A stretch of 64,000 nt of DNA. Origin: Raillietiella orientalis. Its lineage: Eukaryota. The stretch is taken from NCBI GenBank assembly GCA_036172245.1, contig JAYWIR010000053.1, positions 310,001-374,000 on the forward strand. Direction: 5' to 3'. The notes beneath the pieces are model-generated. The model had not been told where the DNA came from and searched no databases. It saw nothing but the letters and a program-made list of their open reading frames with translations. A program made the position numbers and the translations under genes. This document shows, one piece after another, positions 3,483 to 42,125 of the stretch; position 1 is the stretch's first letter, and every line of letters starts with the position of its first letter.

Positions 3483-5454
3483 CTAGAGCGGACGTGTTTC
3501 CTCGGTGCTCCTCGTGCCGAAAACCGTCCCTAGGTGTAGGCTTCGTGTGTGGTGGTGGTCGATCAGGCAGCAATGCCTGACACGACCACCAGTGCGTGTC
3601 AGGGGGCTGTGGCAACGTCGCCTCCTGAAGGAATGGAGTGCCAGGTGGCGGCGGCAACGTCGCCTCTAAAGAAGGTGGAGTGCTAGGAGGAGGCGGCAAC
3701 GTCGCCTACACTGGCGAAGGAGGTGGGGGCGTCCGCATCTACAAAATCGGTCCCCGCTGCAGCGCGGGCGTGGAGCGATGTCGTGTCGGCGCCATCGCCT
3801 GCAGACGCGGCGGAATTGTCGGCCTATGTGGAGGAGGGGTACAACCCCTCATTGTTCTACAAGGTAGGCAAATTATATTCTTCTGAGAGTGCACGCGCCT
3901 TTTCGAAGGGGATGCGCGCTCTCGATGTTAAAGAGGAGTAGCTCTGCGCTATGACCATTCGTAGCGGGGGGCAGTACGTAGAGGTGATCTGCAACCATGC
4001 AGATCTGGCCCAAAGTCTGCTTAAAATCCTTGTGGTAATGAAAGCATGCAGGCTTCTTCCTGTTACGGCGGACCACAGTATGGTGGTCTACCATTTAGGA
4101 GTTACCGCGCGGATGCGGAAAGAACAGATACGCTTCGCGTTGGGAAAAGAAGGCACGGTCCATGCAGTATGGACCAAGCCTAGTCCTTTCGAGGACTATA
4201 CCACAGTTCAGTGCGGCCTCACGGTTGTCCGTGTAACCGTTTGGGAGGGCTCTACCCTTCCCCACAAACTGGTGGTCGGCGGAGTAAGCGTCGACCTCTG
4301 GTACGTGGGTAAGCCCAAATACTGTGGCTTCTGCAACACGTCGGGACACCTCAAAAGGAGGTGCCCCAACGTACAGTGCCAGGTATGCGGGACAATGGGC
4401 CACACGAAGGAAGTGTGTCCACAATCCGCTGTGCCCGTGGTTTCCGCGAGGAACCTAAAAAAACGCGCGCGGCTGCTACAGAAAAGGCTGGGGGCGAAGG
4501 CTGCCGCTCAAGCTGTGCCACCCACACCCGTGATCCAGGCCGAAGCCGACACCCCGGCAACGAATGCCGAAAAGATCGACAAACGCGGACAGGTGTCGGA
4601 ATGCCAAGAAGTCACAGCGAAAAAGAAGAAAAATTCGAAGAAAGAACGACGAATCGAAAAAAAGCTCGCCTACCAAAATAAAAAACAGCAGGTTAGCGAG
4701 AATTCAAAAGAGAGCAACGTCGTCGTGGAACGCGTCCCCGCCGAACGCCGCAAGGTAGAAATCGCTGCTACCGACGAGCAACCCACTGTTGAAGATGTCA
4801 ACAGCGTGGGGAGCGAACCGGCAGAAGCGTCCTTCATCGAGACCGTGATAGATGACGCCGCCTTCGAGCGTGCGGCGGAAGAGCTGGCTGCATAGTTGCA
4901 GCCAGACCCCTCCAAGGCTGGAAAAAAGGCAGTGAGGCGTCCGGACTCCACCGAGGAGTCGGTAACTTCCGACCTTGAAGCGCAGGACGGAAACCAAGTT
5001 TCCATCTCCGCGGCACCCCGCCGGAAGGCTGGAAGGAATTCCAGCAAACCCCGGAAAGCCCCTCTCCAGGTCGAAGACGTGGAGATGACTTCCGACAGCT
5101 AGGGTGCCATGAGCGTGTGAGAATCCCGGGAATCGTTACTCGAGAGACCATTACGCACAGACACGAAACAGATGGAGGGGGTTGAAGCCGGAAAGGTACC
5201 CAAGGTGCCTGAGGAGGCTGAAACCCTAATGTTCATCTCACCCGCCTCGGAAGAGTCGGGTTCCCCCACACCGTCATCTTCCCGGAAGTAATGCCGGAAA
5301 TCTCCTCCCGCCGTCGTCTGCGCATCGCCGTTTGGAACGTGAACGGAATGACAGACGCCGGCAGGAGACGATACATGGCCGCCATTCTAGGATCGTTCGA
5401 CCTTGTGCTGCTGCAGGAGATCCATGTGATCTCTGCAGAACAAGCGCAGGAGAT
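3483..5454 (+). mobile_element. 5' part of family B LINE: 5' UTR, disrupted ORF1 (ATG 3573, stop 5289-5291), ORF2 start
   Basis: CTAGAGCGGACGTG 5' motif; knuckles CGFCNTSGHLKRRC and CQVCGTMGHTKEVC; TAATG overlap; IAVWNVNG...QEIH; in-frame stops present. Confidence 0.88.
3605..3710 (+). repeat. Three degenerate ~40-nt tandem units (core GGCAACGTCGCCT) in the B ORF1 N-terminus
   Basis: Core seen at about 3611, 3653 and 3695; the B copy near 52600-52670 has two related units (AATPPPEAME / AATSPPEAME). Confidence 0.7.
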
Positions 5455-8400
5455 TTCTCACCCGGTCACGCCTGGGCGTTTATTCCATATAACATAACCA
5501 AAAAAAGCAATTTTACAAAATAAACCAGTTAAGAACCAAACTCCCAACCGACGACTGAACAAGAATAAAGAGAATATTGCTGCCACGCAGGGCAGAGTAA
5601 CAGTTTTGTGAACGATGTGGGGGAGCCGGGAACGCAAAGAAACCAAAATAAAATAAAAACAATGAATAAGGAGGACGGGATAAGGGTCTTTGGGATCGCT
5701 TTGGAAGACACAAAAATAAAAGCATGGGCACCGGAAGTTTTACCGAAAGAACGAGGACGCGGTATATGTGGGCGAGAGGTCGCAGGGGTCAACGGATTAC
5801 GCAGTTCTCAGAGGTGTGTAAACCGGCGATGTTTGCCGGTGATGTCCTAATTCACCTTGTCACGAAGATGAGACCACCTGGAAGCCTTCTTCATGAATTG
5901 AGCTGCAAGCAGGTGAGCCTCCCTTTGCTGCGATGACAACTCCAGGGCGTAGCGGGACTTTACGATGGCGCGAATGCAACACATGGTTGCGACAATCGCG
6001 CCAACCGAAAGTCCATTTCTGCTGAAGAAGCGCCGCAGCACATCATTGGCAGTGCCTCCTTGTGGCATGATGGCCGAAGTGAGCCTTCGCCACAGTTCCC
6101 GGAGGTCACCGCAGTCCAGCAAAACGTGCGGAAAAGACTCGATCTCTCCGCACCTTAAACAGTTTGCAAAGCAGCTCCCCCGGAAGCGAGGCTTGGCTGC
6201 CTTTTTCAGTCTAATGCACAATGTAAAAAGAGCAGCACATCTTGTTTCCACTTAAGGGGGAACACAGAGCTGTCCAAACAAACGGGGGTACCACTACCTC
6301 TCCGGGGGGCACACTTAAATGTTCGCTCCACCGAAGCAGTCCCTTCGCCCGATTCCGAGGTGTGGCGGCTTGCACCAGCTCCTTTGTGGTCCAGCTACGG
6401 AGGAGCTTACTGACTACCGCTATTCTGCAGGAGAGCTCCCATTCCGCCGGTAGGCAACCGTCGTTGCTTTCCCTGAGGGCACACAGCGCTGCGGCGATTG
6501 GTGTGACGGCCAGACGATCAGACAACTTCTTGTCCTGCATGACTTCGTCCATTTGATGACTGAGGAGAAGTCGCAGGCGTCGAAGATCTTCCGGGCGCGT
6601 TCCTTCGGAAGCTGGCCACGATGAAAAAGATTCCTGCCGCCATGCACTAATGTTCATGGGGCGGCAGGAGATCCAACTTTGGGCTTCCAGCAGAGAGGAC
6701 AGCTGCCTCAGCGGGAAGCCAAACCCTATTCTGGTGTGCCGAAAGTGGGGTAGCAACGAAAGCAGTCCCTCGCTTCCCGTGCAGCGCCTCAGTATAAGGC
6801 GTGCGGGTAAGCACCACGGCGTACACCACAGCTTGGCACAGAGCCGCAGCATGCGGAACTGAACCTGCAGTTCGATGCTGTTTAAGTCGAGGATGCCCAA
6901 GCCTGCATCCTGACGCGCCGCCACCAAGTCTTTAAGTCTAACACGGGATCTTGCAGCGCCCCACAACGCTTTGCGTAGAAGGCGCTGCGCCCAGACTTTG
7001 ACTTCCTGGGGGGGTGGACAAACAAAAAACAGGGGGCGGAGGAGGGGAACAACCAAGGTGTTCCAGATGCAGGCCCGTTCCTGCAAGACGAACTCGCCTT
7101 CTGAAAACGTACCAAGTGCAAGCTCTGCCTTCCGAAGGCAGTCCGACCACGCTTCTGAGATGCAGAAGTCGCCCAACGGCACGCCAAGGTACCTGAGCTA
7201 CCTGTCGGTGGGGATCCCCAGGTCGATCCAGTCAGACTGCCCCTCCCACGTCGCACCCACCGGAACAACCATACACTTACTGCTGTTAACGCTCACGCCC
7301 GCACCGCGACGAATCAACTCAAAGAAGTCTTCAAGCGATGTCGCCGGGGTGGACATGGGCAACAGGAGAAGCAGGTCGTCGGCATAGTCTGCCACGGCCG
7401 GCGTACCTGGACAGGAGCTCGGCAGGTTGGCTAGCGTCACCCTGCCTAATTCCTCGTCTTACCGGCACGCCGTAAACGCGACAGCCACAGATAACAATGG
7501 ATGTAATCGCGTGGCGCCAGCAGGAGCGCAAGTACGCCAACAGCGATGCCGGAAGACCCAGACGTTCCGAAAGCTCAAGAAGAAGCTTTTGGTTCACGCA
7601 ATCGAAAGCTTTGTGCAGATCGACTGCAACCGCCAAGGCTCCCGGTGTCTCCCTTTGCGTCCCGCGCCTCCGTCGGTAAGAGATCGGAAGCGTCGCTTCC
7701 GCACGACGATCCACCGCCACACGATGCTGCAATTGCAGTCATGTGCAGATGAACAAGAGATTCGCGTCCATGGACCGCCCAGGAACAGCGTACGTCTGCT
7801 CCGGTCTTACCAAGGATTCCGCGATCCTACCCATCCGCGCCACCTAAAGTGTCGAGAACAACTTGACGTCCGAATTCACTAATGTGATCGGACGCCAGTT
7901 GTTCAGTTGGCGCAAATCTCCGCCTTTCGGCAGTAGACGCACCTTCGCTGAGCGAAACGAGGCGGGGACATCGCCCGAGTCTCGCATCAGCGACGAGAGT
8001 TGGAGCACAAGGCGGATGAGCTCCGCCGCAGAACACTGAAAGAATTCCGCAGGGAGCCCATCTTCGCCTGGCGCTTTTCGTCTCTTGAGCAATGAGATGG
8101 CCGAGGAAATTTCCTCTGCCGTGTAGGGCTCATCAAGACGCGCCCGTTCCTCCTCGTCTACAACAGGTGCATCAATCGGCAGAAGCAGCCGGGAGAGGCT
8201 GCGTTTCGTCTGTGCCTCTGCATACAGAGAAGAGTGATAGCGCCTGACTATCACTCGCACGTCGGCTGGAGCCGAGCATTCCTGGTCCTGGTCGTCGAGC
8301 AGAACTGTCGCCCCTGACTGCCACACCTGGCGCTCGGCCTTGGCCTTGTACTCGGATAATCGACCAACGTCCGCGCGCCTGGAAAAGGAGCGGGCCTGCA

Positions 8401-10005
8401 GAAAATCTCTGCTGTTGGCTACGCCCTCTCCGAAGCCGCGCGGAAGCTGGTGCAAGGGAAACCGGCACCATAACTCGCGGACCGATCTTTACAGATCGTC
8501 CCAGTCCTCCAGCTCACTTATGGCAAAGTCGAGGAGGTACTGGCGAATATACTCAGCCGCCTCCAGGTTGCTTAGCCAGTCTGCCGACATCCTTCAAAAA
8601 CAGTTTGGAGGCCCCTTGCCTGGCGGGAGCAACTCGAACTCGAGCCTGTTGTGGTCTGAAAGCACGGACGGCATGGCACCTCTCCGACACACTCGACAGA
8701 GCAAGTGTTCATCAAGGTATACGTGGTCCGGCGTTGCTGCCATAACAGGGTCGCTAGCGAACAAGTTGCAGGCGTGCACGGACGCGCACATCTCTTCCGC
8801 TAGCAACTTTTCCCTTTTCTGGGATCTATTCTCGGAAAGCAGGTGGACGTTAAAGTTCCCCGCAATGAGATGGGCCACAGTAGGGTGAGATCGAGTGAGT
8901 TACTGGCTTTGAAGGGTACCGAAGAACTCAATCCTTTCGGTCCATCGTCCAGCACCGCTCGGCGCGTACTCGTTGGTTACGACAAGGTCGATCGAGTCGG
9001 ACCACTTGAGTACAAGCTGTCCCACTCGGCCTTCCGTGTCGAAACGAACGCTGCGCACCGCTCCCGCCAAAGTTCCTTGCACGAGGAAAGCGACGCCGCA
9101 CGTACGTGCAACGCCGCACCTATAAAGTAGCGTTCCGCCCGCGCGCCGTACGATTTCGGCAGCCTGCTCTCCGGAGATGCTGTGAATCTCCTGCAGGAAC
9201 GTCAAGTCGAAGGCGGGCAGAGCGTCAGCCAATAGTCGCCTCTTCTCCTCGTGTTGGAGCCCGTTGACGTTCCAAGAGGTTAAGGCAACACGACGAGAAG
9301 ACGCAATTACCCTCATGACGGCTGGGAAAGCGAGGCCGTGGTGCTCGCCTCACCCGGCGAGCGGGCAGTAAGCAGCACGACGGGCTGGAGGGCGCACTCG
9401 CCACCGGCCTCAACTGTGCTGCACGTAATCGGGTGCTCCTCCCCGGGTGCAGAACCTGTGGGTTCCGGGGTGAGCACTCGCCGTTTCGCGGCGAGTGTGT
9501 CACGCCTCTGGGCTTGAGCCCTGCGTGCGCTCGCTCTTGCGCGAGTGACGCGTCGTTCAGCGGCGCTATCGGACTCCTTTGTGGAGTCAGATGCTCGCAC
9601 GATCGACGTGCGCTTGCATCCATCCGATTGCACCGGGATAGCCTTCCCGGCGGTCACAGAAGCGGACTTGCACGCGTTGAAGGCGCAGGCTTTTTCCTTG
9701 GAAGAGGCACAAGCAGCGCGTGTTTTCGAATTCCCGCGACTGCGTTTTCCTTTGGAAGAGCTCAGGGATTTATGTTGCGTAGCTTTTTTTGGAGATTTTT
9801 CTTTCCTCCTGTCCACAACCTGCTATTCGCCTCCGCGATTTTCGGAAGCTTCCGCGACAGAAGTTGCGGAAACCTCCAGGATTTTGGCTGCGTTCTCTGG
9901 GGTCGTTGCTTTCGCTACGCCTTTAAATGGCGGCAACGGAGTCATATTGTTGAAAGTTGTTCGCTGACTCGGCAGGAGATTCCTCCTCTCCTGCCGAGAC
10001 AGCGA
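5455..10005 (-). mobile_element. Family D LINE copy D1: ORF1 C-terminal half, disrupted ORF2, 3' UTR
   Basis: Colinear with the intact copy at 24941-29558; has stops, frameshifts and a 62-nt RT deletion near 7439; terminal hairpin 5461-5476. Confidence 0.9.
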
Positions 10006-13000
10006 ACTTGCTCCGCGGCTCAAAGTATTGTGCTCTTGACAAAGTAATTAGTTAATTGTGCTCGTGTGTGCCCGGAGAGGGGAAGTTTTTAAGACGAAAC
10101 TAAAAAAAAGAAGCGGCGAGGAGATCGCGGCAAAAGACCTGCAGTGGTCCCGTGCAGCAAGACGAGCTGCCAGGATGCAGGCACCTAGAAGAGGAGTGGA
10201 GAGACCGTCGTCCCCCATGGAAGCCATGGAGGTAACGTGCGGCAACGGCGAGGCGGTGGCAGGCATGCCGAGGATCGCGCCCGCGGCGGGCTTTGCTGCG
10301 CCGGCGGCGGCGATGCCAAGGGTCGTGCCCGCGGCGACGACGGCGGAGGTCGTGCCCGCGGCGGCGACGCCGAGGATCGTGCCCGCGGCGGGGAAGGTCG
10401 CGCCTGCGGCGGCGATGCCGAGGGTGCCGCCCGCGGCGGTAACGGCGGCAACGTCGAGGTTTGCGCCCGCGGCGGTGGCGACCCAAGCGGGACCCGCGGG
10501 CGTCCACGCGGTGCAGGGAGCGACGCCATCTTGTTCGGCTGCGGCGTCGCAGCCCTTTTCTTATGCGTCATTGGCGGCTGGACAGGCGAGTGACCACCCA
10601 CCTCGGAAATTCGGTAAGCCGCTTAGCGGAAAAGTACTAAAAGTGGACCGACCAATAGTCGAAATAGGCCCCAACGTGAAGCCCATTATCTTCAAGACGT
10701 GGCTAATAAAATTAAATAACATCAGGGAGGTCTATTTGTCCCTCGACAAGACGGACATAGACTTTGATCGCATTCAGGCGATCATTCCATCGAACAACGG
10801 ATTCACAGTCTTTAAAGACTGTGAAAACATTAGAGAGCGATTGATCCAGAAGGGGATCCATATACAAGGACGGATGGTTTGTGGTATTGGCGAAATGCCA
10901 TACACAACCGTCTTTTTAAACGGCATCTCCATCCTCACACCGCAACTAGCGGTGTGGAATTCCTTGGAGCAGTTTGGGGAAGTTCTGGACCTTGAATTCC
11001 AGAACTTCTCTGGAAACATATTTTCTGGCGACATGATCCCAAGATGAAGTTGAGGGAGGGAGCGGTGATCCCTGGATTGGCCGTTATTGACGAACAATCC
11101 CAGGGAGTGAATGTGCGTTACCGGCAACAACCGGTATTCTGCACCGGGTGCAAGCAGTTCGGCCACAGGGCCGGCTCTTGCCCAACGTGTCGTTGTTTCC
11201 GCTGCGGCAAAGTAGGACATCAAGTCCGAAACTGCCCGCAGCCGGAGGTGTGCTCCTTCTGCAAGAAACACGGACATGCGAAATGGAGCTGTGCGGAGTT
11301 TGCAAACTGCAGGAGGATTCGAGGTCTCTCTCCCGTGAGAGAGAGAAACACCGAGGAGGCGGAACAGCCTCAGAAGGCAGGAAGGCCGAAGAAGGTGAAA
11401 GAAGCCGTTGCGGTATCGGAAAACGGCTTCATACAGGTAGGGAAGAAAGGAAAGAGGAGGATGCTCGTCAAGGAGCAAGAAACCCCTTTTATCCTGGAAC
11501 GTGAAGAGCAAGAAGGCGAGAGGATGGAGGTAGCGCAGGAAGGCGCGGAAGAAGAAATAGCCAAAGCCACTTCGGTGTCGCAGGAGGCCCTGCAATCTAC
11601 GGAGGAGTTCGCATCACTGGCTAATGAAGTCCTAGAAGTGCAGAGCGGTCACCAGCAAGAGAAAATCTTGCAGAAGATCTGCAATGCACAGGAGAACATC
11701 AACCAGGTGGTGGAGGTCGCTGAACGCGAGAAGTTAGAGGAACAGCTTCTCGACGTGAAGGCGAACTTCTGCGCCAAGGTCGAGATAGAGGCGCTATCTC
11801 GAAAATTGATCGCGCAGGCGGAACACTCTTCGGAGGAGGCGGAAATTACCGACCTCACAGGTACCGAGAGTGACGCCGGCAGCGAGAAGCCCGCTGCTTC
11901 TTCATTGTCTGGAAGAGCACGCTCTCTCAGACAGAAGAAGCTCAGGAAGGTTAAAAAATAGGTCTTCCTTTTTTATGGTCTCTTCCCTATCGACCGCCAT
12001 CAGGATGACCATCGCCTCCTGGAACGTAAACGGTGTGGTCGACCAGGGAAAAAGAAAAAGGATTGTGCAGACCGTCGCACAACAAGACATCGTGTGCCTG
12101 CAGGAGAACCACAGGATGGGTCTGGAGATAAGCCAGCGAATGGAACGACGATTCAACGGGCAGATGTTCGTCAACGAAGGAGAACGGTACACGAAGGGTG
12201 TGGCGGTGCTAATAAAGAACCACTTAGCCCCCACAATTCTGGAAGTGTTCTGTCCCCAACCCGTACGAATCATCGGCGTGCGACTGGCCTGGTCCGCGAC
12301 TGTTCACCTTATCCTGGTGAACGTGTACGGGCCGCACAGGCTAAAACATCGTTGCGCGGAGGCGCTGCATGCAACACTCCGGCAAAAGGTCGCCCCTAAG
12401 GACGTCGTGATTGTTGCTGTCGATCTCAAGTTCTTGGATGTGATCATTCATTCGGAAGACGCCAGAGGAAGGACGGCGTATCGACGGCTATCCGAGGAGT
12501 TCGGACTGGTCTGGCGAACAGCAAGCCAAAAGCCAATCGATCACGTCCTGCACAGCACCGAACTTGGGAACCGCATCCAGGGGTTTCGCGACACTATGAC
12601 TACGGTGTCCGATCACCCCCTGGTGCGGTTTTCCCTAAGAACGGAGAATCCTCAGCGGAGGCAAGGCACCAGGGCGGCGCTCGTCAGCATGCCCGTCTGG
12701 TTCGAAACCAGTCCCGGAAATCAGGCTGTCCTGGAGACGATTCTGAAGGCAACAACCATCCGAAAAGTCGCCGACTGGGACAGCCTGAAACACAGAATGC
12801 ACCTGTTATCAAACATCCAGTTCGGAGATAGGCGTTTGAGGCAGGAGGCGTACCGGGAGCTGAACATCCAAGATCGCTCACTCTCGAAGTACTTCGTTCA
12901 GTACGAGAGTCGGTACGTCTTTAAGAACATAAAAGGGTAAGTCGACGTGCTGGAGAAGAGAAATCTGGCAACAGATATCTTCTGCATTCAGAACGACGGT

Positions 13001-15627
13001 CAAAAGCGACAGTCGTCTGAGGACATCGTGGATGTTTTTCAAAGGCATTACACGAAACACTTTAGGCGACAACATCTCTGTCGCTCTAGTCAACAGGCCT
13101 TTCTGAGCTACCTCGAGAAGAGGACCGACGACCTCCAGCGGAACAGACTGGAGGAGGAGATCTCCGAAGAAGAGGTGAAGACTGCGTTTGGGCAACTTCG
13201 CAAGGACGTGACAGCGGGCCCCGACAGTGTACCCATCACGCACTATCAGCGGTACCTGCACGCCTACCTGCGCTTGTTCCACCAATTGACCCTCTGCATC
13301 CGGGAAGAAGGCAGACTACCTCAGTCCTTCTACGAGAGTCATATGAGATTGCTGCCGAAAGGAGGCGACTCTACCCAGATCGCCCAATGGAGGCCAATCT
13401 CGATTCTAAACTCCGATGCCAAGTGGTTGGCGAAGATCTGGTCCAACCGCTTAGGCAAGGTCATGTCAAGACTGATCTCTCTCGTCCAGACATGTACAGT
13501 CCCAGGACGACACATGTCGGACAATGTCAAGTGTGCCCAGGCCACTGTTGGACTCAGTCGATACGTCGGCGAGAACCTGGTGCTGGTGTTCACTGACATG
13601 GAGAAAGCCTTCGACTCCATCGACCACGGGATGCTGCTGAAGGTTCTGGAGAAGCTAGGGCTCCCGGAACACTTCAGCAGCTTCGTGAGGGCGGTACTCC
13701 AGAACCAGTACTGCCGAATCAAGATCAACTGCCAGGAGACGGCAGCAATCAGGATGGAACGAGTAGTCCGACAGGGCGACTCGCTAAGTCCGATGCTGTT
13801 CGTCATCTATATGGAGGCGTTGTCGTCCTTTATCGAGAAGAGCGGACGACTAAGCGGGATTGCCATCGATAGCCAGCGTCTTACCCATCTGGCATACGCC
13901 GATGATCTACTTTTCTTCATCAAGGGAGAGAAAAATCAGCGTGCGTTTCTGGATGTGGTGGACCTGATCGAACAGGGCTTGTGCTTAAAAATCAATTCCC
14001 AGAAGAGCCAGCTTTTGCCCGTCGGAATACTGGATCTCTCCACTCTAACGGGTAGTGGATTCCGTACGGTGGACACGTCCAAGTACCTGGGAGTCTACAT
14101 CGGCGACGGCTCTGCGTCGAAGATGCTGTGGAAGGAATTCCTGGGGAAAACGGCCAAGGAAACAGCCAAGTACACCCGAACGGACCTTGGGATGAAGCGA
14201 AAGGCCAACATATGGAACGAAGTACTTCTTACGAAAGTGCTTTTCGGGGCGGCCTTCGCGAGGATGAACAAGGACTCTACTAGGGAGTTCGACAAGCTGC
14301 AAAGAAAAACACTCTGGGGTCACTATCGCCCAAGAGTAAGACCGAAACCCCTGTGTCCTCCCAGGGAAGAAGGCGGTTCCGGGATGAAGTCGCTTGCACA
14401 TCCCATGGAAATCATGGATACGCGACACATCCTGGACATTGCCACTCACTGGGATGACTGGCCGTATGCGGCGCACAGGGCCTACGCGTTGTTGCTTAAC
14501 AACTCGAAAGGCCTGATGACTGCGCTGCTAGGCAAAGTAGGGAAATCGATAACAATCGACACGACCTGGAGGAAGAAGCAACGGCTGGTGCGGAAGCACC
14601 AAATCAAGATCGTGCCGCGCAGCAGGGTACTCTGGCAGCACGAGTCCATCCTGGTGATCCCTTGGTTGCTTCCTGTCCAGCCGGACACAAGAAGCTGGAT
14701 CTACCAGCGGTACAGAGTTACCCTACTGCAAATCCAGGAGTGGAGGCGAGGAGGCTACCTACATCAAACACGTATACTTCGGTATACAGAGATGATGTTA
14801 GGAAGGTTTACCCACAGGACCCGCGAAGTCTGGTTCAACCACAACGACTTCGCATGGTCGAGGGTAACCAGAACAAACCTCGGAAGGCTTATCCAAGAAA
14901 ACGCCCGTGACACCAGTGCCCTCCAGGAAGCCTGCGAACGCTACGGGAGAGAACGGTTAAACCTGTTAGCGATCGGCACGACGCTCTGGAGGAGTGGCCT
15001 TCCACCGGGCACCCAGGATGACCTCCTGAAGTTTTATCACGGAGGAATCCAGAGTGGGTCCCGATTGCAGCACTTCACAGGAAGACGGGAAGACCGAGAC
15101 TGCGCAGCATGTGGAGACGACGACACGAGACTTCACGTCTTGACGTGTCCCACACTCCTGCATGAATGGCTGATCCTGAAAAGGATCATAGGACTTACCA
15201 ACAAGTCCGTTATGGAGATCCTCGCCGGGATGTTTCATGGGGATGGTAATGTTCCCTGTTACAATCCCATGGTGAGGACGACCATAGCCCTCTTCATCAC
15301 CGCCATACTTGTGCGGTGGTGGAAAATGAGGAAAGCCAGGAGAGCCGCACCACCGATGGAGATCCTACAAGGGCTCTTGAAGAGGTAAATCGGCATCAGG
15401 AACTGCGGAAAGATCCACGCCTGGACCTACCGATTGATCCTGAAGAGAATCCAGGACGACGCCCGGGACCATCCTGCTGGAATTCCCCCTTGAAAAGCAG
15501 AACTCTAGTGCAACCCAAGGACCCCCAAGTGCAAAATGTTTGTATTGAGTGAGTGAGAGTGCGAATGTAAATTTTGTATTTTTATAGAAAAATAAACTTA
15601 CCCCACCCCTTGTGGGACTTGGGGAAA
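10006..15627 (+). mobile_element. Full-length family A LINE copy A1 (~5.6 kb), inactivated
   Basis: ORF1 with three CCHC knuckles, frameshifted near 11040; ORF2 EN and RT split by TAA 12938-12940; flanked by CCTGCCGAGxCxGxGA 16-mers. Confidence 0.92.
10263..10500 (+). repeat. GC-rich coding minisatellite (PRIVPAA / PRVVPAA-like units) in the A ORF1 N-terminus
   Basis: Recurrent GCCCGCGGCG core; also at about 15900-16110, 29816-30050 and 35452-35640, the last with 17 fewer codons. Confidence 0.8.
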
Positions 15628-15643
15628 CCTGCCGAGTCGGTGA

Positions 15644-18600
15644 ACTTGCTTCGCGGCTCAAAGTATTGTGCGCTCGACAACATAATCAGTTAATTGTGCT
15701 CGTGTGTGCCCGGAGAGGGGAAGTTTTCCAGACGAAACTACAAAAGAAGCGGCGAGGAGATCGCGGCAAAAGACCTGCAGTGGTCCCGTGCAGCAAGAGC
15801 AGCTGCCAGGATGCAGGCACCTAGAAGAGGAGTGGAGAGACCGTCGTCCCCCATGGAAGCCATGGAGGTAACGTGCGGCAACGGCGAGGCGGTGGCAGGC
15901 ATGCCGAGGATCGCGCCCGCGGCGGGCTTTGCTGCGCCGACGGCGGCGATGCCAAGGGTCGTGCCCGCGGCGTCGACGGCGGAGGTCGTGCCCGCGGCAG
16001 CGACGCCGCGGATCGTGCCCGCGGCGGGGAAGGTCGCGCCTGCGGCGGCGATGCCGAGGGTGCCGCCCGCGGCGGCAACGGTGGCGACGTCGAGAATTGC
16101 GCTTGCGGCGGCGTCGTCCAGGGAGGACCCGCGGGCGTCCACGCGGTTGAGGGCGAGACGCCATCTTCTTCGGCTGCGGCAGCGCAGCGCTTTTCCTATG
16201 CGTCGGTGGCAACTGGACAAGCGAGTGTCCACCCCCCAAGAAAATTCGGGAAGCCGCTATGCGGTAAAGTCCAAAAGCTGTATCGAACGATCGTGAAGTT
16301 AGGGATCGAATGTGCAGCCCATCATTTTCAAGATTGGGCTGATCAAGTTCAGTAATATCAGGGAGGTGTATCTGTCCCTCGATAAGACGGATATCAATTT
16401 TGATCGCATACAGGCGATCATACCGGCAAATAACGGGTTCACAGTCTTCACAAACTGTGAAAAGATTAGAAAGCGATTGGTCCAGAAGGGGTTCAATATA
16501 CAAGCGAGGATGGTTTGTGGTATTGGCGAAATGCCATACACAACCGTTTTTCTGAACATCATCCCTATCCTCACACCGCAAGTAACGGTGTGGAACTTTA
16601 TGGAGCAGAATGGGGAAGTTCTGGACCTTTAATTCCAGAACTTCTCTGGAAATATATTTTCTGGCGACATGATTGCGAAAATGAAGTTGAAAGAGGGAGC
16701 TCTGATACCTGGATTAGCCGTTCTTGACAAACAATCCCAGGGAGTGAACGTGCGTTACCGGCAACAGCCGATATTCTTCACCGGGTGCAAGCAGTTCGGC
16801 CACAAAGCCGGCGCTTGCCCAACGTGTCGTGGTTTCCGCTGCGGCTAAGTAGGACAACAAGTCCGAAACTGCCTGAAGCCGCAGGTGTGCTTTTTCTGCG
16901 ATTAACACAGACATGCCAAATGGAGCTGTGCGGAGTTTGCAAACTGCAGGAGGATTCGAGGACTCTCTCCCGTGAGAGAGAGAAACACCAAGGAGGCGGA
17001 ACAGCCTCAGAAGGCAGGAAGGCCGAAGAAGGTGAAAGAAGCCGTTGCGGTATCGGAAAACGGCTTCATACAGGTAGGCAAGAAAGGAAAGAGGAGGATG
17101 CTCGTCCAAGAGCAAGAAACCCCTTTTATCCTGGAACGTGAATAGCAAGAAGGCGAGAGGATGGAGGTAGCGCAGGAAGGCGCGGAAGAAGAAATAGCCA
17201 AAGCCACTTCGGTGTCGCAGGAGGCCCTGTAATCTACGGAGGAGTTCGCATCACTGGCTAATGAAGTCCTAGAAGTGCAGAGCGGTCACCAGCAAGAGAA
17301 AATCTTGCAGAAGATCTGCAATGCACAGGAGAAAGTCAACCAGGTTGTGAAGGTCACAGAGCGCGAAAAGCTAGAGGAACAGCTCCTCGACGTAAAGGCG
17401 AACTTCTGCGCCAAGGTCCAGATAGAGATGCTATCTCGAAAACCGATCGCGCGGGCCGAACACTCGACGGAGGAGGCGGAAGTAACCGACCTCACCGAAA
17501 CAGAGAGTGACGCCGGCAGTGAGAAGCGCGCTGCTTCTTCATTGTGTGGAAGAGCACGCTCTCTCAGAGATAACAAGCTCAGGAAGGCCGAGAAATAGGT
17601 CTTCCCCTTTTATGGCCTCTTCCCTATCGACCGCCAGGAGGCTGAACATCGCCTCCTGGAATGTAAACGGTATGGTCGACCAGGAAAAAAGAAAAAGGAT
17701 TGTGCGAACCATCGCACAACAAGACATAGTGTGCCTGCAGGAGACCCACAAGATGGGTCTCGAGATTAGTCAGCAAATGGAACGGCGTTTCAACGGGCAG
17801 ATTTTCGTCAGCGAGGGAGAACGGAACACGCAGCGTGTGGCGGTCCTAATCAAGAACAACTTGGCCCCCACTATTCTGGAAGTGTTCTGTCCCCAACCCG
17901 GACGAATCATCGTCGTGCGACTCGCCTGGTCCGCTACTGTTCACCTCATCCTGGTGAACGTGTATGGGCCGCACAGGCTAAAACATCGTTGTGCGGAGGC
18001 GCTGCATGCAGCACTCCGTGAAAAAATTGCTTCCAAGGACGTCGTGATTGTTGCTGGCGATCTCAACATATTGGATGAGATTACTCACTCCGAAGACGCC
18101 GGAGGAACGACGGCGTTTCGGCGGTTATCCGACGAGTTCGGACTGGTGTGGCGAACTGCAAGTCACAAGCCGATCGATCACGTCCTGCACAGCACCGAAC
18201 TTGAAAATCGCATCTAGGGTTTTCGAGACATTATGACCACGGTGTCCGATCACCCCCTGGTGCGGTTTTCCCTAATAACGGAGAATCCTTGGCGGAGTCA
18301 AGGCACCAGGGCAGCGCTCGTCAGCATGCCCGTCTGGTTCGAAACCAGTCCCGGACATCAGGCTGTCCTGGAGACGATTCTGAAGGCAACAACCATCCGA
18401 AAAGTCGCCGACTGGGACAGCCTGAAACACAGAATGCACCTGTTATCAAACATGCAGTTCGGAGATAGGCGTTTGAGGCAGGAGGCGTACCGGGAGCTGA
18501 ACATCCAAGATCGCTCACTCTCAAAGTACTTCGTTCAGTACGAGAGTCGGTACGTCTTTAAGAACATAAAAGGGTAAGTCGACGTGCTGGAGAAGAGAAA

Positions 18601-20967
18601 TCTGGCAACAGATATCTTCTGCATTCAGAACGACGGTCAAAAGCGACAGTCGTCTGAGGACATCGTGGATGTTTTTCAAAGGCATTACACGAAACACTTT
18701 AGGCGACAACATCTCTGTCGCTCTAGTCAACAGGCCTTTCTGAGCTACCTCGAGAAGAGGACCGACGATCTCCAGCGGAACAGACTGGAGGAGGTATTCT
18801 TCGAAGACGAGGTGAAGACTGCATTTGGTCAACTACGCAAGGACGTGGCAGCGGGCCCTGTCAGCGTACTTATCACTCACTATCAGCGGTACTTGCATGC
18901 CTACTTGCCTTTGTTTCACCAGTTGACCCTCTGCATCCGCGAAGAAGGAAAACTACCTTAGTCCTTCTACGAAAGCCGGATGAGAGTGTTGTCAAAAGGA
19001 GGCGACCTCACGCAGCTCGCTCAATGGAGGCCAATCTCGATCCTGAACTCCGATTCCAAGTGGTTGGCGAAAATCTGGTCCAACCGCTTAGGCAAGGTCA
19101 TGTCGAGGCTCATCTCTCCGGTCCAAACGTGTGCAGTCCCTGGACGTCACATGTCGGACAATGTCAAGTGTGCCCAGGCCACCGTCGGACTCAGGCAATA
19201 CGTCGGCGAGAATCTGGCGCTGGTGTTCACTGACATGGAGAACGCTTTTGACTCCATCGACCATGGGATACTGCTGAAGGTTCTGGAGAAGCTAGGCCTT
19301 CCCGAACACTTCAGCAACTTCCTGAGGGTTGTACTCCTGAAACAGTACTGCCGAATCAAGATCAACGGCTTGGAGACGGCAGCAATGCGGATGGAACGGG
19401 GAGTCCGGCAGGGCGATTCGCTAAGTCCGATGCTGTTCGTCATCTACATGGAGGCGTTGTCATCCTTTATCGAGAAGAGCGGACGACTGCAAGGCATAAC
19501 AATCGATGGTCAGCGTCTTACCCATCTTGCATACGCTGATGATCTACTCTTCTTTATCAAGGGAGAGAGAAATCAACGAGCGTTTCTGGATGTGGTAGAC
19601 CTGATGGATCAAGGCCTGGATCTAAAGATCAACGCCCAGAAAAGCCATCTTTTGCCCGTTGGAATCTTCGATCTCTCCACTCTAGCGGGGAGAGGATTTC
19701 GAACGGTGGACAAGGCCAAGTACCTGGGTGTCTACATTGGCGACGTCTCAGCGTCGAAGCTATTGTGCACCGAGATCCTAGGGAAAACGGCAAAGGAAGC
19801 AGCCAAGTACACCCGAACGGACCTTGGAATGAAGCGAAAGGCCAACATATGGAACGGAGTACTCCTTTTAAAAGTGCTCATCGGGGCGGCCTTCGCGAGG
19901 ATTTACAAGGAAACCACGATGGAGTTCGACAATCTGCAGAGAAAAACACTGTGGGGATACTATCGCCCAAGAGTCCGACTAAAACCCCAGTGTCGTCCCA
20001 GGGAAGAAGGCGGTTCCGGGATGAAGTCGCTTGCACACTCCATGGAAATCATGGATACGCGAAACATCCTGGACATTGCCACTCACTGGGATGACTGGCC
20101 GTATGCGGCGAACAGGGCCTACGCGTTGCTGTTGAACAACTCGAAAGGCCTGATGACTGCGCTGCTAGGCCGAGCAGGCGTATGGAAAAAAATCGACCCA
20201 ACCTGGACGAGGAAGTAACGGCTGGTGCGAAAGCACAAAATCAAGATCGTGCCGAGAAGTAGGGAACTCTGGCAGGACGAGTCCATCCTGGTGATCCCTT
20301 GGTTGCTTCCTGTCCCGCCGGACACGAGAAGCTGGATCTACAAGCGGTCCAGGTTTACCCTTCAACGAATCCAGGAGTGGAAACGAGGAGGGTACCTTTA
20401 TCACACTCGTATACTTAGGTATATAGAGAAGATGTTAGGAAGGTTTACCCACATGACTCGCGAAGTGTGGTTCAACCACAACGACTTTGCGTGGTCCAGG
20501 GTAACCATAACAAACCTCCGAAGACTAATTCAAGAAGAACACAGTGATATCAGTGCCCTCCAGGAAGCCGCCGATCGCTACAACAGTGAGCGGATGAACC
20601 TGTTAGCGATTGGCAGGACGCTCTGGAGGAGTGACGTTCAACCGGGCACCCAGGATGACCTCCTGATGTTTAAACATGAAGGAATCCAGAGTGGGTCCCG
20701 ATTGCAGCACTACACCGGAAGAAGGGAAGATCGAGACTGCACAGCATGTGGAGACATCGACTCGAGAGTTCACGTCTTCAGGTGTCCCACATTGCTGCAT
20801 GACTGGCTTATCCTGAAAAAGATCATCGGACTTACGAAGAGATGCGTAATGGAGATCCTCGCTAGGATGTTTCAGGGGAATGGTAATGTTCCCTGTTACA
20901 ATCCCATGGTAAACGCGACCATCACCCTCTTCATCACCGCCATACTTGTGCGGTGGTGCAAAATGAG
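15644..20967 (+). mobile_element. Family A LINE copy A2, more degenerate, 3' truncated
   Basis: Colinear with A1; many stops; homology ends at ...GTGCAAAATGAG (20967). Confidence 0.9.
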
Positions 20968-22109
20968 TACTCCAGCTACGGAGGGTGGCTGCGCTGTATC
21001 GGAAAAACTTAGGATTGCTCACCTGTCGCCCTTTGAACGGTAGTGCCTGGTTGCAGGAAACCGTTCGAACGTGGGGACGGTTCGGCATGCAACAATCCCA
21101 ACAGGAACGAAGGTTCCTGTTTGGGGGTTACAGAAGGTGCACGCTTCGCGAGATCCCGGAGGATCCAAAGAAGGGAGCGTAGGCAGGAAGAACCCCCATC
21201 GCTGCTGTGCTGCCCGCGCTGATGGAAGATCTGGACAGCCATGTTGCGACGAAGTGGGTGGTTACAGTAACAATCTCTGGAGAGTAGAAGAAAATAGGAG
21301 AGTGGAAGACGGGCCAGCTAACTGATGCTGCGACCCCGAATACGCCTTCCAATGGAATTCTGCGCTCGGACGCGCTGGTTGATGTTCCCATTTTACATCT
21401 AAAGTGGCCCCCGGTGCTCGTTAACACTTTCGCCCTCCTCTTAAAATGGCTGGAGTGGGCTCTCCTGTTACAGCACTGGGTACTTCCCTGCAACACCCGC
21501 CGACACCACTGGCTCTTGGGAGCGGTGGACCCCAATTGCGTCAGGTGTGGGGAACAAGAGTCCCTCCCCACCTGCTAGTGGATTGTGTTGCCCTTCGGCC
21601 CCTTTGGTTTCGCTTTGCCGCGGCCATCGGAATCCCCTGCGGCAACCCCAGGGACGCACTGAAAGCCCTCTTCGTTGCCGACGCCCTTCGGCCAGCGGCC
21701 TCGTTAGCAGCTTTGTGCTGCCTACGCGGGATCGTCACCGCTTGGAGCAAAGCTACGGGAGGACAACGCGACCAGGGTGCCATCCAGCCAGCCTCCCAGT
21801 TCCTGAGGATGGCGTCCCGATGGCCTTACCTGGATCCAGGAATACAGAAGGAGATTGCCGGCATCCTGCAAAGAATGCAACGGCCCCACCAGCAACTGTG
21901 ATCCCTTCCCTTACCCTCCCAACTTTTTTTATCTTTTTTGTTTTGTTCTTTGTTTTTTCCCCTGCCGTGGTGGACCGTACCGGTCTGCGAACCGGTGACT
22001 AGGCTGGCTCTGTGTTTCTTCGTGCGTGGCTGGAGCAATGGTCTAGCCACCGCACGTTTTTCCAAAGGTTTATTTTACAAAAAAAGGCCCCGGCGAAATC
22101 CGGGGGAAA
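20968..22109 (+). mobile_element. 3' fragment of family B LINE (ORF2 C-terminus, 3' UTR, terminal hairpin)
   Basis: Highly similar to the reverse complement of 47281-48430; ends ...RMQRPHQQL; CCCGG-cgaaat-CCGGG at 22088-22104. Confidence 0.88.
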
Positions 22110-23035
22110 ATCGAACCCCTTGTGGAGATCGACTGCGAGCAATAGGGCCCCCTTCCCCGCCCGGAGGTCCCTTCCTAGCCCGACTGGCGGCCCCAATGTG
22201 GGGTTGCCGACTTTCCCTGTCCCTTTCTTTTCTCTTCTCTGCAGGTGCACCCATGTGCTTGCGAAGAAGAGGTTGGCATCCATACTTCGCGCGGGAACAG
22301 CATAAGTCTGCTCCGGGATAATTACGGATTTTGCCACCTGCCCCTGACGTGAAGCCCATAGCCCTGCTATTAACGTGGCGTTTGTATTCACGATCGTTAT
22401 CGGACGCCAGTTCTTTAAATTCCTGAGGTCTCCCCCTTTCGGAAGGAGCCTCACTCTGGCTGACCGAAACGAGGCGGGAACATCGCCTTCGTCTCGGATC
22501 AGCCTGATCAACTTAAGCAGCAGGGGTGCTAGCTCTTCCGCGAAGCTCTGAAAGAACTCCGCGGGCAAGCCGTCTTCCCCTATAGCTTTACGCCTCTTAA
22601 GCCTTTTGATACCGGCGAGAATTTCGCCCGTGGTAAAAGGCTCGTCGAGGCTTTCCAACTCCTCCTCCCCTATTGCCGGGGCGCCATCCGGAAGCAAGCG
22701 CCGAGAGGCGTTTCGATCCTGGGGCTCCCTGGCGTAAAGGGAGAGATAAAAACTCCGCACGAGATGCCGTACCGACGCCGGGGACGAACATTCATGGCCC
22801 TGGTCGTCCAGCAAGCGGGCCGACCCGGATTGCCAGGCTTGGCGTTCGGCCCCGGCGCGGTACTCGGCCAGGTGACGGACATTAGGGGTTCTCTCGTACC
22901 TACGTGCCTGTAAATAGGCCCGATGGTTGCGAGCACCCTCGCCGAATCCGATGGGCAGGCGATGCAGAGGGAACTGCTCACAGAACTTGCGGACCGATTC
23001 CTTAAAAAGATCCCAGTCCTGGAGATTCCGGAGCG
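22110..23035 (-). pseudogene. Internal ORF2 fragment (EN-RT linker to AVDLHKGFD)
   Basis: KAIGEDGLPAEFF, WRPITIVN, EQTYAVP in ORF 21999-22814. Confidence 0.85.
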
Positions 23036-35180: not shown

Positions 35181-35363
35181 CCTGCCGAGTCGGTGAACTT
35201 GCTCCGCGGCTAGAAGTATTGTGCGCTTGACAACTTATTCAGTTCATTGTGCTCGTGTGTGCCCGGAGAGGGGAAGTTTCCAGAAGAAACAAAAAAAAGA
35301 AGCGGCGAGGACATCGCGGCAAAAGACCTGCAGTGGTCCCGTGCAGCAAGACCAGCTGCCAGG

Positions 35364-37103: not shown

Positions 37104-37116
37104 GTCTTCCCCTTTT

Positions 37117-40026: not shown

Positions 40027-40764
40027 AGGCTTATCCAAGAAAACGACCGTGACACCACTGCCCTCCAGGAAGCCACCGAACGCTACGGGAGTAAACGGTT
40101 CAACCTGTTAGTGATCGGCACGACGCTCTGGAGGAGTGACCTTCCGCCGGGCACCCAGGATGACCTCCTGATGTTTTATCACGGAGGAATCCAGAGTGGG
40201 TCGCGATTGCAGCACTTCACAGGAAGACGGGAAAACCGATACTGCGCAGCATGTGGAGACGACGACACGAGACTTCACGACTTGACGTTTCCCACACTGC
40301 TGCATGACTGGCTGATCCTGAAAAGGATCATAGGACTTACCAACAAGTCCGTTATGGAGATCCTCGCCAGGATGTTTCATATGGATGGTAATGTTCCCTG
40401 TTACAATCCCATGGTGAGGACGACCATAGCCCTCTTCATCACCGCCATACTTGTGGTGGAAAATGAGGAAAGCCAGGAGAGTCGCACCACCGATGGAGAT
40501 CCTACAAGGGCTCTTGAAGATGAAAATCGGCATCAGGAACTGCGGGAAGATCCACGCCTGGACGTACCGATTCATCCTGAAGAGGATCCAAGACGACGCC
40601 CGGGACTATCCAGCTGGAATTCCCCCCTGAAAAGCAGAACTCTAGTGCAACCCAAGGACCCTCAAGTGCAAAATGTTTGTATTGAGTGAATGAGAGTGCG
40701 AATGTAAATTTTGTATTTTTATAGAAAAATAAACTTACCCCACCCCTTGTGGGACTTGGGGAAA

Positions 40765-42123
40765 CCTGCCGAGTCGGCGATGGGGCGCCTGCATGCAGCG
40801 TGCTTTTGCTCGTTGCGACGCTGCTTTTTACGGCTTTCGTAGCCTTTGCAGTGGGGCCTGCGCTGCAGTAAGGCTGTCCGGTACTCGGAAGGGACAACGG
40901 AACGAGGCAAGAAGTCTTCGCACTGTTGCGATCTTCCTGTTTTCCTACCTTTCCCTCCAGGGTGTTACGGAGATTTCCTGGTTCCAGGTTCGGAAAGGTG
41001 CCTGCGAGTTCGGCAGAGAGGGAAGGCACGGCACGCGTCAAACCCTCGCGCTCCTTTTTAATTGGCTTCCCCGCCGTGACTTTCCCCTTTCGGGGCGTTG
41101 CGGGCGGGGATGCTTTCTTTTCATCCGCGGATCGCTCGTGGTTTTTTGCGAGTTTTTGCGGACGACGTTTTTTATTTGCCGCTGCGGCTTTTCGTGCAGT
41201 GGTCTCTTGAACCCGACGAATTTCCGCTGCGGCTCTTTTTATTGCAAGTACCGGGCACTTCTTGATTTCGTGCCCGGAATCTTTGCAATAGCGGCATCTT
41301 GGAGAGGGGCACTCTTTAATTCGGTGCCCATCCTTGCCGCACTGCTCGCACGCGCGAGTCTGGCCTATGAACCACAGGTGAACGACCGTGCCGTTCACCT
41401 GCAGCTGCTCAGGGACAACACGCCTGTTCGCGACGGTGATCCTCGCGGAGGCTTGTCCAATGTGGACAGAGGGGAAATCCTTTAGAGGATTTGGCCTCCT
41501 CCACAGAGCGTGCACGGTGGCGAACTTCGCCAGCACACTTACGACATCGCGGTCGGAGATTTCCGGTTCGATGTCGCACAATTGAACGACAAAAGAGTCG
41601 TCCATCGCGGTAGGTATGACTTCCTTGCCATTGATGGTCAACGGCGTACGGAGAAGGCGCTGCACAAGTGCTGCGTTCTTGCACCGAATCTTCGTATATT
41701 CCATCCTGCCAGCAGGCATTATGGCAAGGAGTTCCTCCTCGCGAACGCCTATCCGGACGAGCTCATCATTGAGCTCACGACCGATTCTCCCGTTAAGTGG
41801 CCCACTGATTTTATAACGGAGTGCAGGCATGTATCCTGATGACACATATGCCTGGAACTCCGCATCGCAGGGTCCTGGTCTTTGGGAGGTAACGACGGCG
41901 TAACTCCTCACCGGGGGCGAGGAAACCATTACGGAGGATGCGGCCACTTCAAGTGCAGCTGAAGTGCATCCAGTGGCTTGCTGCTCCACACTATCCTGTG
42001 TACTGGCCATGTTGCACTATGCTACTTGGCAGATTGCACAGGAACACACAAGTGCGAGCAAAAACGCAGGCACAAAGTTGCCCGATCGTTGGCGCGGAAA
42101 GACGCGGAAACACGTCTGCACTG
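40765..42123 (-). mobile_element. 5' part of a family D LINE: 5' UTR and ORF1 N-terminal half (ATG 42010)
   Basis: CEQCGKDGHRIKEC and CRYCKDSGHEIKKC; ends at SPTRQ, matching SLSRQ where D1/D2 ORF1 resumes; GCAGACGTGTTTCC 5' motif. Assignment to D is inferred from the shared 16-mer. Confidence 0.8.
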
Positions 42124-42125
42124 TA

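Follow-up and report, generated by a model that had tools for sequence, protein, structure and literature searches.

The window, i.e. the whole 64-kb stretch of DNA that was analysed, is a nest of LINEs of the APE plus reverse transcriptase (RT) type, in which copies of a family denoted A lie within copies of a family denoted D, and these in turn within copies of a family denoted C. The elements, in window coordinates, are as follows.

3687–5454: LINE C1, split by D1 at a codon identical to the D2 site in C2
5455–10005, minus strand: D1, with 3′ UTR, ORF2 and the C-terminal part of ORF1; its 5′ part lies outside the window
10006–15627, plus strand: A1, full-length, with one frameshift and one stop
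15644–20967, plus strand: A2, the most decayed A copy, with nine in-frame stops and two frameshifts; its last ~300 bp are replaced from 20968 by a fragment of another LINE
23113–24940, resuming at 42126–43829, plus strand: LINE C2, host of D2, with ORF1 and the first ~67 codons of ORF2, split by D2
24941–29558, minus strand: 3′ portion of D2, with ORF2 (25297–28902; APE and RT, 1201 codons) and the C-terminal part of ORF1 (28903–29558)
29559–35180, plus strand: A3, 99.2% identical to A1
35197–40764, plus strand: A4, intact, with ORF1 (35214–37103; CCHC knuckle) and ORF2 (36991–40026; APE endonuclease and reverse transcriptase)
40781–42125, minus strand: 5′ portion of D2, with the N-terminal part of ORF1 (412 codons, CCHC knuckle) and the 5′ UTR

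D occupies one common site in both C copies, which are only about 75% alike.

Family A is a 5.6-kb L1-like retrotransposon. Its ORF2 (36991–40026 in A4) contains an Exo_endo_phos domain (PF03372, residues 56–256; 2e-17) followed by an RVT_1 domain (PF00078, residues 504–750; 7.7e-36). In a comparison among solved structures only, the best chain was human L1 ORF2p (9.9e-56, vs 7.3e-28 for the best R2 protein). A search against 1.84 billion representatives yielded 77,964 matches, the best three of which were 27–34% identical to A ORF2; a word-index search returned 39 distant L1/Tx1-type matches with 21–32% identity, and an atlas search returned generic RT clusters of mixed taxa. No close family for A ORF2 was found in these protein searches, the best database relatives being only 24–34% identical. 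The ORF2 products of A and D are ~28% identical.

The termini of A are uniform. All four copies begin at the identical base immediately after a 16-bp sequence (hereafter the 16-mer), and each of the three preserved 3′ termini reads ...GGGGAAA immediately before a 16-mer. The 3′ end of A4 has an AATAAA ~30 nt before the terminus and a small stem-loop; the tail of A consists of AAA only, with no long poly(A), and 5′ truncation was found in none of the four copies. Of the traits of the L1 superfamily, A thus displays the order of endonuclease and reverse transcriptase in ORF2 and the target-site duplication; the A-rich tail and frequent 5′ truncation are absent. Such a short tail together with complete 5′ ends is typical of stringent, target-specific LINEs and not of mammalian L1. 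Searches against Rfam gave no hit at gathering score in the whole window and none at E ≤1 near the 3′ junction; near the 5′ junction three chance-level rows (E 0.2–0.6) corresponded to no known ribozyme or RNA family. When metagenomes were scanned with 20 nt from the 3′ end of A, four loci were retrieved, all with unrelated surrounding sequence.

The A copies are arranged as two arrays, [16]A1[16]A2(truncated) and [16]A3[16]A4[16], where [16] stands for the 16-mer. The junction features are:

9990–10005, plus strand: 16-mer, 5′ copy of array 1, variant ...GAGACAGCGA
15628–15643, plus strand: 16-mer between A1 and A2, variant ...GAGTCGGTGA
29543–29558, plus strand: 16-mer, 5′ copy of array 2
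35181–35196, plus strand: 16-mer between A3 and A4
40765–40780, plus strand: 16-mer, 3′ copy of array 2, variant ...GAGTCGGCGA; D ORF1 continues immediately beyond
9961–10005: D-native inverted repeat in D1, with arms 9961–9979 and 9987–10005 (19 bp) and loop 9980–9986; a 21-bp form (9959–10007) includes the first two bases of A1
29514–29558: inverted repeat in D2 (21-bp form 29512–29560), within the tract of near-identity discussed below

The initial annotation had placed the 16-mer at the five intact A boundaries, and all five were recovered. The degenerate 16-mer has seven matches in the window and none in each of 100 shuffles: the five on the plus strand listed above, and two on the minus strand (9961 and 29514), which are the left arms of the inverted repeats. 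Allowing up to three mismatches added a single site (47382), which is chance level. The three variants of the 16-mer differ at 1–3 of 16 positions; CpG decay as their source was considered and dropped (CpG observed/expected is 0.94–1.0 across the A copies).

Deletion in silico of the A array together with one 16-mer generates a D ORF1 of 641 codons. Keeping none or two of the 16-mers at the join gives frames of 427 and 444 codons, respectively, and deleting the left arm plus loop leaves 429–430 codons; in the window, stop-free runs of at least 600 codons account for 6 of 3041. Because the frame is restored by exactly one 16-mer, both the 16-mer and the inverted repeat are native to D. The left arm, which was never touched by A, is complementary to the 16-mer. 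The 16-mer is thus a true 16-bp target-site duplication of D ORF1 sequence and no part of A, as the initial annotation had proposed.

The number of insertion events is smaller than the number of boundaries, owing to one further feature:

9834–15400, partner about 29387–34953: tract of near-identity between the two loci, beginning ~170 bp inside D and ending ~230 bp before the A 3′ end

Judged from its extent, this tract is a product of gene conversion between the two loci. As the near-identity does not respect the A boundaries, conversion was preferred and independent insertion of A1 and A3 rejected. The five boundaries therefore belong to two arrays of which A1 and A3 are linked, and the repeat at 29512, sitting in the same tract, cannot be counted as a second independent copy. 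Accordingly, the inverted repeat is identical in the two D copies (the only ones in the window) on account of the conversion tract.

The remaining A copies differ in a manner expected of retrotransposition products. Adjacent copies within the arrays are 89% and 94% identical, and dN/dS is 0.24–0.26 for A1–A2, 0.23–0.29 for A2–A4 and 0.37–0.39 for A1–A4. The ORF2 differences between A2 and A4 are distributed over the codon positions as 58/51/158 (p 3e-18); the control pair D1–D2 gave 50/37/58 (p 0.10) and a dN/dS of 0.73–0.98. Since A1/A3, A2 and A4 differ from one another with dN/dS values of 0.23–0.39 and a strong excess of third-position changes, retrotransposition into one site has to be assumed on at least three occasions. 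Within this one window, the substitution patterns thus establish that A inserted no fewer than three times, separately, at an identical nucleotide, in one orientation and with uniform full-length 5′ ends, and the claim that A re-uses the 16-mer sequence held in substance. Insertion of at least three lineages (A1/A3, A2 and A4) at the same nucleotide in the same orientation is a trait of stringent LINEs, seen here in one window. The counts of disabling changes (none in A4, 2 in A1/A3 and 11 in A2) are unequal, which indicates that the copies are of different ages; the order of A3 and A4 depends on few such changes (2 vs 0).

An account without any target specificity would have a non-specific LINE insert once, by chance; unequal crossing-over between the two 16-mers, locus duplication and gene conversion would then have produced the rest. 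Sequence exchange between the two loci is indeed observed, the A copies are mosaic, and only one or two loci are seen; moreover, L1-type elements usually produce duplications of 7–20 bp at loosely defined sites. Copies made in place would diverge neutrally, however, and the A copies do not: their dN/dS and third-position excess stand against the near-neutral D1–D2 pair, and A4 is free of disabling changes next to neighbours with 2 and 11. Furthermore, the C1 and C2 flanks outside D are far less alike (about 63–77% identity) than D1 and D2 (about 90–98%), so that the two loci are not a simple segmental duplicate. We therefore consider this history unlikely. All of the evidence derives from a single 64-kb window, in which the two loci are related; since these exchange sequence, and since identity among the A copies is uneven (76% to 100% across 200-bp windows), part of the apparent independence could stem from conversion by A copies outside our view.

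In our preferred reading, A is probably an APE-type LINE from the L1 superfamily, autonomous and target-specific, whose insertions, always antisense to D, go to a single 16-bp sequence of D ORF1, within its poorly conserved C-terminal half. Both D copies that retain the target region are occupied by A. A scheme modelled on standard target-primed reverse transcription would account for the junctions. The A endonuclease would place a nick in the bottom strand at the ...TCT/CCTGCC... step, which is the left edge of the 16-mer, and the A RNA, ending in ...GGGGAAA, would be reverse-transcribed starting at this nick. A second cut would fall on the top strand 16 bp further on, after ...GCGA, and fill-in would then create the 16-bp duplication. 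In such a scheme the 16-mer is rebuilt whole at both sides rather than consumed, and later A copies could enter one of the duplicates to form head-to-tail arrays of the type [16]A[16]A[16]; because the duplication regenerates the target of A itself, the arrays can grow. Reading of the sequence by the A endonuclease, the nick positions and the order of events are what we infer from the junctions.

A variant compatible with the preferred reading would shift the specificity largely from the endonuclease to base pairing: A transcripts would read into the downstream 16-mer, and the resulting RNA tail would pair with the nicked bottom strand, which at the presumed nick has a 3′ end complementary to the 16-mer. 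In the arrays, each A copy is indeed followed by a 16-mer, A ends in AAA with no long poly(A), and R1-type elements do use read-through target sequence. Two considerations make us regard this variant as rather unlikely: the AATAAA, ~30 nt ahead of the A terminus, agrees with cleavage where A is seen to end, and a correctly placed nick would still be required.

The most conspicuous feature of the target is the inverted repeat whose right arm holds the 16-mer. As the initial annotation had noticed, a near-perfect 21-bp hairpin lies at 9959–10007 and again at 29512–29560; the 21-nt arms (9959–9979/9987–10007 and 29512–29532/29540–29560) are 95% complementary and separated by a 7-nt loop. The two rank at the top of 16 short-range inverted repeats in the window, the next best being 88% complementary over 16–17 nt. 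Folded as single-stranded DNA, the 67-nt stretch gave −24.9 kcal/mol (shuffle mean −8.0, z −7.85, none of 200 shuffles equal); the opposite strand gave a z of −7.54. The last two nucleotides of the right arm come from A, as had been noted, and the D-native repeat therefore comprises 19 bp, with the duplicated 16-mer terminating exactly at its outer edge. On the other strand, the left arm contains the same 16-mer plus 3 bp. For the repeat, an origin in snap-back synthesis from the A nick was rejected, as D ORF1 breaks without the left arm and loop and the repeat reaches 3 bp past the nick. One possible compensatory pair, between position 12 of the 16-mer and the left arm, allows no assignment of polarity and was hence left unused.

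These properties raise the question of whether A might, as the initial annotation suggested, recognise an extruded cruciform or hairpin, or whether a displaced top-strand hairpin might set the second nick at the base of the stem, with D keeping the repeat as a cis element. In addition to the exceptional rank of the repeat in the window, the duplication starts 3 bp from the loop and its other end coincides exactly with the outer end of the native 19-bp stem; moreover, A1 is younger than the far more decayed A2 and precedes it in the array, which suggests that A1 entered a 16-mer still accompanied by its hairpin. A hairpin or cruciform also takes part in target recognition by a bacterial retroelement (PMC3240598). 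The second array points the other way. Here, the intact A4 lies downstream of A3, and the flanking 16-mers differ at 1/16 positions for A4 vs 3/16 for A3, so that A4 probably entered the 3′ copy. Only the 5′-junction 16-mer has a hairpin context: the copies in the middle and at the 3′ end show no such fold (z −1.2 and −0.3), the partner arm of the 3′ copy being 5.6 kb away, and the duplication is still exactly 16 bp. The presumed nicks are asymmetric about the repeat, and A has made no use of the left-arm mirror site (neither of the two left arms in the window carries an A). Matches to the C-terminal part of D ORF1, including the inverted repeat, are limited to the two D copies within the window, with no covarying copies among them; the N-terminal part has matches at seven other places in the window. 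A literature search on LINEs and cruciforms gave, among the papers listed and judged by title and abstract, no LINE with a cruciform target. Recognition by structure is thus a decidedly unlikely reading, and the 19-bp inverted repeat, on the pattern of the junctions, is most likely not needed for insertion. As the left arm carries the same 16-mer yet is empty in both D copies, the 16-mer alone may not suffice. A protein collection searched with the N-terminal part of D ORF1 gave no match at E ≤0.001 in the ‘longer’ and ‘near’ length classes (the ‘longer’ class would miss a 641-residue protein, and the ‘near’ class was searched as well); an uninterrupted D ORF1 was not found there, which is weak evidence.

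Several known systems, compared here on the basis of excerpts of the cited articles, resemble the arrangement of A in D. Tx1L of Xenopus is described as integrating at a specific sequence inside the transposon Tx1D by means of a highly specific endonuclease (PMC1950540). Like A, it is a LINE found at one specific sequence in another transposon in fixed orientation and has an APE-type endonuclease; A likewise combines APE and RT, its nearest solved relative being L1 ORF2p. Tx1D is a DNA transposon, however, whereas the host of A is the ORF1 of another LINE; the duplication made by A is 16 bp long, and its endonuclease is a predicted one. Neighbouring copies in R1 arrays have duplicated rDNA target between them, and where a preferred site is hit twice, dimers split by the duplication arise (10.1101/158386). 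Head-to-tail copies with duplicated target between them, and a preferred site that is regenerated, are common to these tandem dimers and to A, in which the 16-mers at 15628 and 35181 separate A neighbours that are not duplicates of each other (dN/dS <0.4). In contrast to R1, the target of A is a transposon gene rather than rDNA, and the members of its arrays belong to different lineages rather than to one expanded dimer. Zepp and ZeppL of green algae are L1-type LINEs that insert into existing LINE copies and form dense nests and arrays (PMC8226300), and share with A the accumulation of an L1-type LINE within LINE copies. By description, Zepp targets its own copies and leaves mostly 5′-truncated 3′ ends, whereas A targets another family at one nucleotide position with full-length 5′ ends in all four copies; insertion into its own family and 5′-truncated arrays were not seen in A. 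Diversity-generating retroelements retrohome beside an inverted repeat (PMC3240598), but are bacterial and have proteins unrelated to those of A, and serve as an analogue for recognition by structure only. Taken together, the underlying logic of a target regenerated by duplication, with arrays as the outcome, is already familiar from R1 and Tx1L, and A is best read, by analogy, as another such LINE.

A combination of target-specific LINE-on-LINE parasitism at three levels (A at a fixed site of D ORF1 and D at a fixed codon of the C endonuclease gene) with a hairpin or cruciform in D coding sequence through which A would read its target or place the second nick appears highly improbable to us; if true, it would represent a eukaryotic LINE that chooses its target by structure. 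The locus also lends itself to experiment. Programmable, RNA-templated insertion is naturally modelled on target-specific LINEs, of which few are known with another retrotransposon as safe harbour; for A, one copy (A4) is intact, and the 16-bp target is defined, with predicted nick positions. In addition, the 16-mer with and without its hairpin partner, in both orientations, provides a built-in comparison that makes reading of sequence versus structure by an APE endonuclease directly testable. The nest of A in D and D in C implies that LINE-only regions can grow via mutual landing pads, which bears on LINE-built, centromere-like clusters.

Contigs aligned to 35150–42300 showed no joint or loose end at 40765/40780 among the matches listed, a result uninformative on empty sites or other flanks. 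One 595-bp contig (X1) spans 40478–41072; it shows 15 differences and connects the 3′ terminus of A, across the 16-mer, with D. Over the same interval (35150–42300), the summed contig depth, which is not equivalent to copy number, is greater for A than for D ORF1.

LINE retrotransposons are densely nested throughout the window, where long frames on both strands encode an APE-type endonuclease and a reverse transcriptase, with CCHC knuckles in the ORFs upstream. Self-comparison of the window yielded four copies of family A, a 5.6-kb element on the + strand, and two copies of D, the LINE that it targets:

10006-15627, +: A1, with one frameshift and one stop
15644-20967, +: A2, with nine in-frame stops and two frameshifts, the final ~300 bp swapped for a fragment of another LINE
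29559-35180, +: A3, with the same two disabling changes as A1
35197-40764, +: A4, intact
24941-29558 and 40781-42125, -: D2, its two parts split by the A3-A4 array
5455-10005, -: D1, adjoined by A1-A2, its 5' part absent from the window

Both A4 ORFs are intact (ORF1, 629 codons; ORF2, 1011 codons). The closest solved structure to A ORF2 is human L1 ORF2p (9.9e-56), and R2 proteins scored 7e-28. Among 1.84 billion representative proteins, the best three matches were just 27-34% identical, and the 39 matches from a word-index search were remote L1/Tx1-type proteins from plants, animals and metagenomes. A metagenome scan with 20 nt of the A 3' end returned four matches, all at chance level and in unrelated sequence. 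A is new and isolated as a family, and of a kind already known: a target-specific APE LINE with its own target-site duplication standing between the members of its arrays. The choice of another LINE's ORF1 as target is unusual.

The inverted repeat in D ORF1 (9959-10007, second copy at 29512-29560) and the degenerate 16-mer in its right arm are present exactly as the initial annotation described them. The repeat is the window's best short-range inverted repeat and folds far better than shuffled sequences (z of -7.9 on one strand and -7.5 on the other; 0 of 200 shuffles as good). In the window the 16-mer has five matches on the + strand, one per A boundary, and two on the - strand, which are the left arms of the inverted repeat; 100 shuffles contained no match. 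The stem native to D is 19 bp, which the first two bases of A lengthen to 21, and the duplicated 16-mer lies within it, beginning 3 bp away from the loop and reaching exactly to the stem's outer edge. Known RNA families gave no match in the window or at the 5' and 3' junctions.

The 16-mer might belong to A rather than to its target. The A3-A4 array was therefore excised in silico and the number of retained 16-mers varied; the longest frames across the join were:

one 16-mer, either variant: 641 codons
no 16-mer: 427 codons
two 16-mers: 444 codons
left arm and loop removed: 429-430 codons

Of the 3041 stop-free runs in the window, only 6 are 600 codons or longer. With one 16-mer kept, the CCHC-bearing N-terminal part of D ORF1 (42016-40781) is in frame with its C-terminal part (29558-28903). 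Since the 641-codon frame appears only with a single copy, the 16-mer is D sequence, and the proposed 16-bp target-site duplication is genuine. The left arm, never touched by A, is complementary to the 16-mer, so the whole inverted repeat is older than A; this complementarity, and the break in frame without left arm and loop, rule out the repeat as a product of A insertion. The junction of A 3' end, 16-mer and D was confirmed in one DNA run by a 595-bp contig with 15 differences, among the matches listed.

The 16-mer does stand at every A boundary, as claimed, but the five boundaries are not independent. D1 and D2 are 90-98% identical (150-bp windows) and A1 and A3 99.2%. The loci, otherwise about 5% diverged, share a 5.5-kb tract (9834-15400 versus about 29387-34953) in which identity is about 99.4%. 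The loci differ at 35 positions in 9486-9833, at only 2 in the final 172 bp of D before A, at almost none through A to about 15400, and at 12 in the final 227 bp of A. The tract thus ends inside D and inside A without following the A boundaries, which points to gene conversion between both nests, so that neither the second hairpin copy nor the A1/A3 pair is independent.

A1/A3, A2 and A4 differ mutually by 6-11%, with dN/dS of 0.23-0.39 in both ORFs. Differences between A2 and A4 in ORF2 are dominated by third codon positions (58/51/158, p 3e-18), whereas the control pair D1-D2 is near-neutral (dN/dS 0.73-0.98; 50/37/58, p 0.10). Disabling changes number 0 in A4, 2 in A1/A3 and 11 in A2. The three have thus diverged as active lineages do. 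Copying in place by unequal exchange would not give this low dN/dS, third-position excess and unequal decay, so one 16-bp site holds three or more A elements that arrived by separate retrotranspositions. All copies share one orientation and an identical first base, and the three preserved 3' ends are identical, in support of target re-use. The copies are mosaic, with 76-100% pairwise identity in 200-bp windows and nearest neighbours changing along the alignment (10006-20967, 29559-40764). Such a pattern suggests that A lineages have recombined or that conversion has occurred within arrays, and conversion from unseen copies may therefore blur the count of insertions.

The suggestion that A recognises a cruciform, with the hairpin as an element that D has to keep, found no support, and a role of the hairpin in A insertion is rather unlikely. 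Intact A4, presumably the youngest copy, sits downstream of A3; the 16-mers on its two sides differ from each other at 1 of 16 positions, those around A3 at 3 of 16, which fits entry of A4 into the 3' 16-mer duplicate. That duplicate lies 5.6 kb from its partner arm and does not fold, and the duplication at A4 is again exactly 16 bp. The position of A4 and its non-folding target hint that the hairpin is dispensable. The order is reversed in the other array, the younger A1 lying upstream of the decayed A2, and A1 would thus have entered the hairpin-bearing copy of the 16-mer. Should both readings hold, the 16-mer is the sole feature common to all used targets. Neither D copy has an A in its left arm, where the opposite strand carries the 16-mer and 3 bp more; this counts against a pure 16-mer model, not significantly, the events being too few. 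In the window, the C-terminal part of D ORF1 containing the repeat matches just the two D copies, whose repeats are identical owing to the conversion tract, and the N-terminal part matches seven other places at 23-63% identity. A search of the protein collection with the N-terminal part as query found nothing at or below E 0.001.

The scheme known for target-specific LINEs accounts most simply for the A arrays. A sequence-reading APE endonuclease of A would nick the bottom strand at the 16-mer's left edge, and this nick would prime reverse transcription on A RNA; a second nick, placed 16 bp downstream, and fill-in would yield the 16-bp duplication. As the duplication holds the whole target, the site would be regenerated twice and later copies could enter it, extending head-to-tail arrays. 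A read-through RNA tail that pairs with the target might assist. R1 arrays and transposon dimers formed by double insertion are described as arising like this, head to tail through a duplicated target that regenerates the site (10.1101/158386). Tx1L, a LINE with a fixed address inside another transposon, offers a precedent for A (PMC1950540).

D itself interrupts a third LINE, C: in two C copies it lies antisense at one shared codon of the ORF2 start that encodes the APE domain (after ...QEIH.I...Q.(Q/R)EI; junction regions 5405-5500, 24891-24986 and 42060-42160). Before the junction these C copies are about 63-77% identical (150-bp windows), versus about 90-98% for D1 and D2; identity jumps at about 5449, a few bases from the D 3' end. 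An imperfect ~13-bp duplication flanks D2. Four further C-type copies were compared at the D target:

43816-44133, -: C-type copy
55180-55775, -: C-type copy
62719-63346, +: C-type copy
50453-51041, -: C-type copy

Three are uninterrupted (empty sites), and a fourth, at 50880-50975, lacks about 16 codons immediately up to the target. The shared codon in two diverged C copies and the ~13-bp duplication make D, too, look target-specific. The region as a whole resembles a chain in which LINEs serve each other as landing sites. The nest is reminiscent in its layout of the nested Zepp/ZeppL clusters; Zepp is described as self-targeting with 5' truncation, whereas A has neither habit (PMC8226300).

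The A 3' end (40690-40764; also 15553-15627 and 35106-35180) comprises a 13-bp AU-rich stem, AATAAA, a small GC stem-loop and ...GGGGAAA; it has no long poly(A) and resembles that of a stringent-type LINE. At 20967/20968 a piece of another LINE (20969-22948) takes the place of the final ~300 bp of A2; it aligns inversely to 48429-46441 at about 87% identity. Neither the 3' 16-mer expected after A2 nor the remainder of D1 lies in the window. All four A copies, decayed A2 included, have a CpG observed/expected of 0.94-1.0, which gives no sign of methylation-driven CpG loss there. Five short contigs among the matches listed from a second run (X2, organism B) are 90-99% alike to 36959-37567, the A region encoding the ORF2 start and endonuclease, so A-like elements may be present in another sample or organism.
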